From the NCBI GenBank assembly GCA_021613535.1, contig CP075492.1, positions 3,658,001 through 3,722,000 of the forward strand: a stretch of 64,000 nucleotides of DNA, in the 5' to 3' direction. Below are positions 18,647 to 20,333 of this stretch, in pieces. Below the pieces are notes generated by a model that was not told the DNA's origin, made no database searches, and worked only from the letters and a program-made list of their open reading frames with translations. Each line of letters starts with the position of its first letter. Positions within the stretch are counted from its first letter, which is position 1. The position numbers were made by a program, and so were the translations under genes. Origin of the DNA: Adineta vaga (taxonomy: Eukaryota > Animalia > Rotifera).

Positions 18647-20333
18647 TTAATCAGTTTCAGTTGCTTCACCATCATTGTTGTTGTTGTTGTTGTTGTTGTT
18701 ACCGGAGAAAAGTCCAGAGAAGATTTGACTGATTGGTTTACCATTAAGTGTCCAATTTTGTCCCCAACCTTGAAAGAGTCGTGATTCAGCTTCACGTTTT
18801 CCTGGTTTAATTGTAACACTCCAGTTACTGAACCATCCATCGAACCAACGTTGTAATTCCTCCAGGTGTCATTTCTTTTAAATCACGTTTACCAAGTAGA
18901 CCTAAGTTAACATTCCATCCACTAAACCATCCATCGAACCAACGTTGTAATTCTTCTGGTGTCATTTCTTTTAAATCACGTTTACCGAGTAGACCTAAGT
19001 TAACATTCCAGTTACTAAACCATCCGTCGAACCAACGTTGTAATTCTTCAGGTGTCATTTCACTTAAATCACGTTTGCCGAATGGTTTAATGTTAACATT
19101 CCAGTTACTAAACCATCCGTCGAACCAACGTTGTAATTCTTCAGGTGTCATTTCTTTTAAATCACGTTTACCGAATAGGTTTAAGTTAACATTCCATCCA
19201 TTAAACCATCCATCGAACCAACGTTGTAATTCTTCTGGTGTCATTTCTTTTAAATCACGTTTACCGAGTAGACCTAAGTTAACATTCCATCCACTAAACC
19301 ATCCATCGAACCAACGTTGTAATTCTTCTGGTGTCATTTCTTTTAAATCACGTTTACCGAGTAGACCTAAGTTAACATTCCATCCATTAAACCATCCATC
19401 GAACCAACGTTGTAATTCTTCTGGTGTCATTTCTTTTAAATCACGTTTACCGAATAGGTTTAAGTTAACATTCCATCCATTAAACCATCCATCGAACCAA
19501 CGTTGTAATTCTTCTGGTGTCATTTCTTTTAAATCACGTTTACCGAATAGGTTTAAGTTAACATTCCATCCATTAAACCATCCATCAAACCAACGTTGTA
19601 ATTCTTCTGGTGTCATTTCTTTTAAATCACGTTTACCGAGTAGACCTAAGTTAACATTCCATCCACTAAACCATCCATCGAACCAACGTTGTAATTCTTC
19701 TGGTGTCATTTCTTTTAAATCACGTTTACCGAGTAGACCTAAGTTAACATTCCATCCACTAAACCATCCATCGAACCAACGTTGTAATTCTTCTGGTGTC
19801 ATTTCTTTTAAATCACGTTTACCGAGTAGACCTAAGTTAACATTCCATCCATTAAACCATCCATCGAACCAACGTTGTAATTCTTCTGGTGTCATTTCTT
19901 TTAAATCACGTTTACCGAATAGGTTTAAGTTAACATTCCATCCATTAAACCATCCATCGAACCAACGTTGTAATTCTTCTGGTGTCATTTGATAGTCAAG
20001 ACTTTTTTTGCCAAACCATGGAATAGTGATATGAACATTGCTGAACCAACCATCGGTCCAATCTTTGGTTGAGACTTCTAATGGAGCTACTTCTGCGTCA
20101 CGTTTGCCTGGTTTAATGTTAACAGTCCATCCACTAAACCAATTATCGAACCAACGTTGGATTTCTTCTGGTGTCACTTCATTTAAATCACGTTTGCCTG
20201 GTTTGAAGTTTATCTTCCATCCACTTAACCATCCATCAAACCAACGTTGAAGTTCATCTGATTGAGCATGATCAATATTCATTGCTAGTGAAACACCAGC
20301 GAATAACAACAGAAGAATCACTTTGGATTGCAT
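18647..20333 (-). CDS. Secreted multi-copy prepropeptide encoding 16 Trp-rich, predicted C-amidated peptides; 1-nt frameshift near 18862
   Basis: Signal peptide plus repeats of DLKEMTPEELQR / WFDGWF(N/S)GWNVNL(N/G)L(F/L) / G-KR. Removing one base at ~18862 restores a 16th unit and a tail ending at TAA 18647. Confidence 0.9.
18795..20250. repeat. 93-bp coding tandem repeat array (31 aa unit)
   Basis: Near-identical units such as aaccatccatcgaaccaacgttgtaattcttctggtgtcatttcttttaaatcacgtttacc. The terminal units are diverged. Confidence 0.97.

Follow-up and report, generated by a model that had tools for sequence, protein, structure and literature searches.

The 64,000-nt window of Adineta vaga DNA analysed here contains, on its minus strand, a gene for a multi-copy secreted peptide precursor. 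Its architecture is already well known, and the peptide family itself appears to be new. Its processing would release about 16 peptides that are aromatic, near-neutral and amidated at the C-terminus. A reading made from the sequence alone (hereafter, the sequence-only reading) had proposed such a precursor, and the proposal holds: in the standard module, the two species compared share the amidation signal G-K-R without exception, and the gene shows signs of transcription. That reading had also named findings that would count against it, two of them a missing transcript and a clear match to a known family. We found no match to an already described peptide family, and instead of a missing transcript we found signs of transcription in sequencing contigs.

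Organisation of the precursor gene

The open reading frame starts with an ATG at position 20333 and encodes a signal-like N-terminus followed by modules closed by G-K-R/K. With an intact frame the precursor comprises 561 aa and 17 modules; as assembled, the ORF comprises 502 aa and ends at 18825. Residues 1–17 (20283–20333) form a predicted signal peptide with a hydrophobic core, as had been proposed; the N-terminus reaches a peak Kyte-Doolittle value of 3.8 in a 7-residue window, and the signal peptide is kept in A. ricciae. There is no Cys in the precursor.

Modules are 30–32 residues long, and all lie on the minus strand. Modules 1 and 2 (20100–20282) have divergent cores with a K-P end, followed by G-K-R. 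Module 3 (20004–20099) is odd, with its own spacer and a G-K-K end, and has a counterpart in all three A. ricciae proteins described below. Modules 4–15 (18885–20003) form a homogenised array of 93-bp units, each consisting of a linker, an Arg, a 16-residue core and G-K-R. Module 16 (18794–18884) is split in the assembly, where a single extra base near 18863 shifts it and the C-terminus into another frame (18862–18647). Module 17 (18647–18793), also kept in A. ricciae, has no amidation signal and ends in the stop codon; it consists of a five-residue linker, Arg, a divergent core, a second hydrophobic segment, a poly-Asn tract and an acidic end. As a tandem repeat, the array spans 18827–19990, with 12.5 copies of the 93-bp unit as assembled and a 95% match between them.

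A Gly followed by a dibasic site closes 16 of the 17 modules, 15 with G-K-R and one with G-K-K, exactly as first described. The earlier total of 16 modules is right for modules of the amidation type; it overlooked the seventeenth, C-terminal module, which lacks G-K-R. Core counts (two cores present four times, one present twice, and six single variants) and core lengths of 15–17 residues were given correctly. The spacer DLKEMTPEELQR, previously assigned to every module, is found in most of the 16, with other spacers in modules 1–4 and 14.

Across all six frames of the window, this gene alone provides stop-free stretches of at least 60 codons with at least two G[KR][KR] motifs, and we conclude that the modular ORF is not a product of chance. 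We rejected a 300-aa plus-strand ORF that overlies the array, regarding it as a by-product of the repeat. The poly-Asn tract (18675–18700) is apparently nine bases shorter in sequencing run X4, and probably also in runs X17 and X18; it is shorter in A. ricciae too.

The reading frame is very likely intact

The sequence-only reading treated 18647–20333 as one reading frame. The assembled ORF does break near 18863, and bridging of the break is backed by sequencing contigs. The gene, whole or in part, is present in 20 of the 24 sequencing runs listed, and we aligned the contigs of eight runs. Two contigs from different studies (X18 record 17 and X17 record 1) bridge the insertion site (18860–18864) from the unique tail without the extra base, each carrying 44 letters on the repeat side. 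Given these bridging contigs, the frame is very likely intact and the precursor 561 aa long, and the likeliest reading of the extra base is an assembly error. None of the contigs listed contains this base; the remaining gapped contigs, which may come from other repeat copies, were left uncounted.

It is very improbable, in our judgement, that the window instead represents a true frameshifted and dead allele, or that the array is largely an assembly artefact. Such an explanation would fit the broken ORF. It would also fit the origin of the two bridging contigs, whose differences from the window at a few other sites identify them as another haplotype, and the fact that no contig among those listed spans the whole array, the module copy number being that of the assembly. 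It is harder to reconcile with the lack of the extra base in every contig listed, and with unique-tail contigs from DNA runs X1, X3 and X4, whose match ends at 18859 with one letter unaligned, as would be expected if they run on into an ordinary in-frame repeat. Moreover, the tail past the break is 72% identical to that of A. ricciae over 53 residues, and a truncated allele would still code for 15 modules.

One contig joint in X3, between 18590 and 20450, was taken as chance, with only 20 letters on its short side. Downstream of the gene (17800–18443), two divergent haplotypes are present in DNA runs X1 and X3; the 5′ 400 bases (19961–20360) are represented in the same runs by a single identical contig.

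Signs of transcription

The peptide gene is likely transcribed. It is represented in probable-RNA contigs from three studies and in one run with RNA on record (X19), the assignment of X10, X17 and X18 to RNA being a guess. At 20365, one X18 contig terminates in a loose, adapter-like end, which we take to be a cDNA 5′ adapter. This end lies 25–32 bases downstream of a TATA-like element found by motif scan (20390–20397, minus strand), a putative promoter element, and marks 20334–20365 as the likely 5′ UTR. At the other end of the gene, contigs of X17 and X18 terminate at 18545 and 18498, respectively, each just past an AATAAA (18584–18579 and 18517–18512), in a region where the DNA runs continue; 18498–18646 is the likely 3′ UTR. 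X19 contributed one contig of depth 3, apparently from the N-terminal modules. We used contig depth neither for copy number nor for expression level.

Two observations call for caution. An X10 contig extends through the intergenic region upstream of the peptide gene. X18 also has a second adapter end, at 20589, which faces the plus strand close to where the upstream gene has its 3′ end, with no sense gene start there; it would represent either an antisense RNA or an artefact of the library.

Relatives were found only in Adineta ricciae

The only relatives that we found are three partial A. ricciae proteins. A HMMER search of 1.84 billion representatives returned seven matches, two of them strong, both to partial A. 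ricciae proteins. The other five (E 1.8e-4 to 9e-4) were set aside, being weak or driven by the repeats; two fungal matches among the seven are long unrelated repeat proteins with 24–27% identity (E about 1e-4). The third partial A. ricciae protein came from a search with the N-terminal 173-aa query (95–303 aa), which gave three matches, all in A. ricciae. Homologue searches with the full ORF (276–879 aa) and with the tail alignment (264–2000 aa) gave no matches. Pattern searches gave 596 and 602 matches in metagenome contigs, 106 in GTDB genomes and 43 in viral contigs, none of which was confirmed. ESM Atlas contained no usable match, and the best match among PDB sequences had an E-value of 0.16. 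Eighteen whole-protein Pfam matches were rejected as summed repeat noise with no passing stretch, and three single modules and the tail matched no Pfam family. Since only two species could be compared, the apparent lineage restriction may reflect missing gene models.

Literature searches, with most subscription journals outside their coverage, returned nothing on this peptide family by topic and no full-text match to WFDGW or FDGWF. In the accessible portion of the PMC6425005 supplement, DGWF matched eight times, always in unrelated proteins; the 12 files searched, of 16 in the PMC11258130 supplement, contained neither an accession nor a motif match to the gene.

Conservation and variation of the modules

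The A. ricciae orthologue follows the same plan of signal peptide, standard modules, odd module 3, module-4 type and tail. In it, the odd module is preceded by two or three standard modules and followed by fewer, counts that are subject to collapse of repeats in short-read assemblies. The A. ricciae proteins retain the linker, FDGWF, the alternation of hydrophobic residues and Asn, G-K-R and the tail. In the standard module, identity between species is 73% for the linker, 83% for the first six core residues, 36% for the last ten and 100% for G-K-R.

The core was originally characterised by Trp at i, i+4 and i+8. This spacing is present in 15 of the 17 window modules and in none of the four distinct A. 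ricciae cores, and is therefore species-specific. 'Trp-periodic' does not survive as the defining trait, the A. ricciae orthologue having replaced two of the three Trp. The central Trp alone is invariant (13/13 distinct cores). What follows it is a physical pattern: among the distinct cores, hydrophobic residues occupy position +4 in 13/13, +6 in 13/13 and +8 in 11/13, and positions +5 and +7 in 0/13, +7 being Asn or Thr in every case. The core can thus be described as a head, hydrophobic-F-D-G-W-F, followed by a strand-like alternation. Taken alone, β periodicity is weak in the window units (p 0.06 and 0.13) and has a p-value of 0.008 in A. ricciae. Linker and core head together form a predicted amphipathic helix (helix moment p about 0.01 versus shuffles), and helix and strand jointly give p of at most 0.001 versus shuffles.

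Variation among the copies is concentrated towards the amidation site. Across 11 window units of equal length, seven replacement variants and one silent variant fall in the last ten codons, against one and four elsewhere (Fisher p 0.03, for copies that are not independent and a boundary drawn post hoc). The residue at the amidation site itself is F, L or P. Window cores carry a side-chain charge of −1 to +1, and the major ones sum to about −7 kcal/mol on the Wimley-White interface scale; A. ricciae cores are far less hydrophobic, at about −3 to −4.5.

Predicted processing and product length

From established prohormone chemistry, we infer cleavage at the dibasic sites, trimming and amidation: removal of the signal peptide, cutting at K-R, trimming and Gly-directed amidation would yield 28-residue peptides. 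A second cut, after the Glu-preceded Arg, would yield cores of 15–17 residues, and we consider it fairly probable that this second cut takes place and frees short cores rather than 28-mers. For the commonest types, the predicted monoisotopic masses of the amides are 2026.95 and 1908.93 as 16-mers, and 3496.67 and 3378.65 as 28-mers. A single Arg is in register in 16 of the 17 modules, module 3 having a Lys one place earlier than the usual Arg (Arg-Lys in A. ricciae). The second cut is suggested by the homology of the 17 modules, which begins right after the Arg while the linkers differ. A bulky residue following a single Arg is unfavourable for convertases, and 28-residue products could still result, since the linker is conserved and the predicted helix continues into the core head. 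A core boundary at the single Arg, where the sequence-only reading had placed it, is nonetheless plausible from the sequence. The second cut is further suggested by the fit of 16 of the 17 modules to the Glu-preceded Arg quadruplet of spider precursors, as described in the available text of PMC8290080. For each of PCSK1, PCSK2 and furin2, four paralogues are reported in Adineta (10.1101/802215).

The conserved linker, and an amphipathic helix running from it into the core, could also belong to an uncleaved extracellular repeat or matrix protein in which each 31-residue unit is a helix plus a stacking β-strand. A low-confidence AlphaFold model does have a helix and a short strand per unit, without a confident fold (pLDDT 38.7, pTM 0.23, 5-sequence alignment). 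We regard this explanation as improbable: G-K-R does not vary in the standard module and persists in the divergent ones, and the module lengths vary, which a regular solenoid would tolerate poorly.

Comparison with known peptide systems

In the precursors of spider linear (cytolytic) peptides, a quadruplet with a Glu-preceded Arg is the processing signal (PMC8290080, available text). On the same source, the Adineta precursor resembles these in having a signal peptide, many peptides and short anionic linkers that end in a Glu-preceded Arg, and the spider peptides often carry C-terminal amides. Linkers that are anionic, close with an Arg and carry Glu at −2 to −4 are present in 16 of 17 window modules and in 8 of 11 A. 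ricciae instances. The resemblance does not extend to the peptides themselves: as far as the available text describes them, spider peptides are mostly cationic and helix-forming, whereas the Adineta cores combine aromatic residues with many Asn, are near neutrality in charge and have a tail resembling a strand. The inverted motif at the start of spider linkers occurs by eye in two of 16 modules, and Adineta linkers start after a dibasic site. We found no sequence homology to spider linear-peptide precursors.

Precursors of fungal KEPs also combine a signal peptide with K-R-separated repeats, and the Ustilago Rep1 repellents (PMC4617103, PMC9769878, both from their available parts) are the nearest mechanistic analogue. 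Unlike fungal KEP/Rep1 precursors as described there, the rotifer precursor has an animal-type Gly amidation signal on all but its last module, and shorter units; we found no fungal homologue of it. Judged by its sequence, then, the rotifer precursor shares its design with spider linear peptides and fungal KEPs and lacks what defines either.

Wamides/allatostatin-B peptides are defined by an N-terminal Trp and a C-terminal Trp-amide, and no module here has Trp before G-K-R. The pedal peptide/orcokinin type is defined loosely, by conserved hydrophobic positions (PMC5814872, available part), with motifs such as FDSIG or (F/L)DRLGSG (PMC4990251, available part). As described in these parts, pedal peptide/orcokinin/FCAP precursors, like ours, hold many copies of peptides of 11–19 residues, with F-D and then a hydrophobic residue near the N-terminus and a hydrophobic C-terminus. 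The hydrophobic N- and C-terminal positions of this type are present in the Adineta cores and are too loose to be diagnostic. An FDSIG- or I/L-G-x-G-like core is absent, FDGWF standing in its place with Gly at +3 in 4 of 13 distinct cores (by eye). The Adineta peptides also differ in being Trp-rich, starfish members of the type being unamidated according to the accessible sources. Lacking the defining features of each, the Adineta precursor is set apart from Wamides, pedal peptide/orcokinin, spider linear peptides and fungal KEPs.

Amidated neuropeptide precursors of the bdelloid Rotaria resemble the Adineta gene in having a signal peptide, tandem copies and G-K-R. In the accessible portion of PMC6425005, Rotaria neuropeptides are short and their C-terminal motifs nearly fixed across species, unlike the Adineta peptides, in which the half next to the amide is the most variable and a conserved 12-residue linker accompanies every copy. 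None of the Rotaria neuropeptide precursors at 36 of 40 places in the PMC6425005 supplement resembles this precursor.

As the main rival to the reading preferred below, we weighed a lineage-specific neuropeptide or pheromone precursor, in which FDGWF would bind a GPCR and the variable tail would tune or species-mark the signal. This is a serious possibility, if a somewhat doubtful one. The signal peptide, 16 G-K-R/K sites and many near-identical copies are as expected of such a precursor; the first six core residues are the best conserved part of the core between species (83%), and FD-x-hydrophobic loosely recalls pedal peptide/orcokinin motifs. Yet the amidated end is not constant (F, L or P), and with 36% identity over the last ten core residues, the conserved C-terminal amide motif of a classical neuropeptide is missing. 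The short-peptide precursors of Rotaria, as far as they could be consulted, have no conserved 12-residue linker per copy, and the accessible portion of the PMC6425005 supplement contains a separate FCAP-related precursor with SLDSLSG-type repeats. In the NP-HMMer preprint (10.1101/2024.07.20.604414), the proteomes of four rotifers, one of them A. ricciae, were screened with HMMs; it reported 20 families in rotifers, orcokinin among them, and its available part contains nothing similar.

A putative interface-active secretion

The sequence-only reading had offered four functions with no preference among them. The comparative sequence data modestly favour an interface-active secretion over a neuropeptide read at its C-terminus. 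The reading that we prefer, tentatively and at a little under an even chance, is of secreted amphiphilic peptides that act at membranes or surfaces, from a precursor with spider-venom-like linker design and neutral cores. Outside the animal, as a secretion that protects it, the peptides would have a physical action on membranes or hydrophobic surfaces. The acidic helical linker would keep the cores soluble before release, the aromatic FDGWF end would serve as an anchor in the interface, and the hydrophobic/Asn-alternating tails could pair as β-strands. The benefit might be antimicrobial or a surface coat.

Several observations point towards action at membranes or surfaces: the physical pattern is conserved over side-chain identity, variation is concentrated beside the amide, the major cores have strong interface hydrophobicity, the linker design is common to secreted cytolytic-peptide precursors, and the distribution is narrow, with relatives in Adineta only. 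The presence of PCSK1, PCSK2 and furin paralogues in Adineta (10.1101/802215, available part) is likewise in its favour. Counting against it, amidation and many copies are neuropeptide hallmarks, a receptor might use the near-invariant FDGWF as its pharmacophore, hydrophobicity is much lower in the A. ricciae cores, and the cores lack the positive charge that most antimicrobial and cytolytic peptides carry.

A more specific proposal, which we consider unlikely as it stands, is a native ribosomal defence or coating secretion. Here a new neutral, aromatic, amidated family, made from a venom-style linker precursor, would self-assemble through its Asn-alternating strand on fungal membranes or cuticle, and would diversify fast at the amidated end under pathogen pressure. 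Bdelloid antifungal defence as presented in the available text of PMC11258130 is centred on horizontally acquired biosynthetic genes, and its main text does not mention signal peptides or neuropeptides. Beside the acquired defence genes, a native multi-copy family built on an unusual scaffold, neutral and aromatic, would be a further, separate system of secretion. If the peptides are instead signals, an asexual animal would have a neuropeptide or pheromone specific to rotifers. Because the products are short and unbridged, every reading is directly testable with synthetic peptides and peptidomics.

Genes in the neighbourhood

The peptide gene is flanked on its 3′ side by a gene for a 3CxxC zinc-ribbon protein (16565–17128, minus strand) and on its 5′ side by a gene whose product carries a weak, B-box-like zinc finger (20654–21673, minus strand). 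An OPT oligopeptide transporter (13854–16097, plus strand; ORF 14688–16097) lies 2.5 kb downstream and is probably unrelated to it. Two tandem single-ORF 7TM receptors of the rhodopsin family (7102–8067 and 8377–9354, plus strand) have no visible link to the peptide gene.

A candidate for horizontal acquisition is the gene at 555–1640 (plus strand), which encodes an uninterrupted 361-aa nucleotide-sugar 4,6-dehydratase (Pfam GDP_Man_Dehyd, E 5e-93), presumably similar to bacterial dTDP-glucose dehydratase. A 495-aa protein at 2218–3705 (plus strand) has a weak PARP-catalytic match (E 0.02). The TPR-rich gene at 21846–24189 (minus strand) consists of several exon-sized ORFs, one piece of which (22979–23206) we take to resemble an ADP-ribosyltransferase domain. 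A Transposase_21 (tnp2) fragment (46636–47295, minus strand), together with a neighbouring unassigned ORF, lies within 45113–47295, a probable DNA transposon remnant. Finally, 53698–54684 (plus strand) encodes a pentapeptide-repeat protein with a hydrophobic N-terminal segment.
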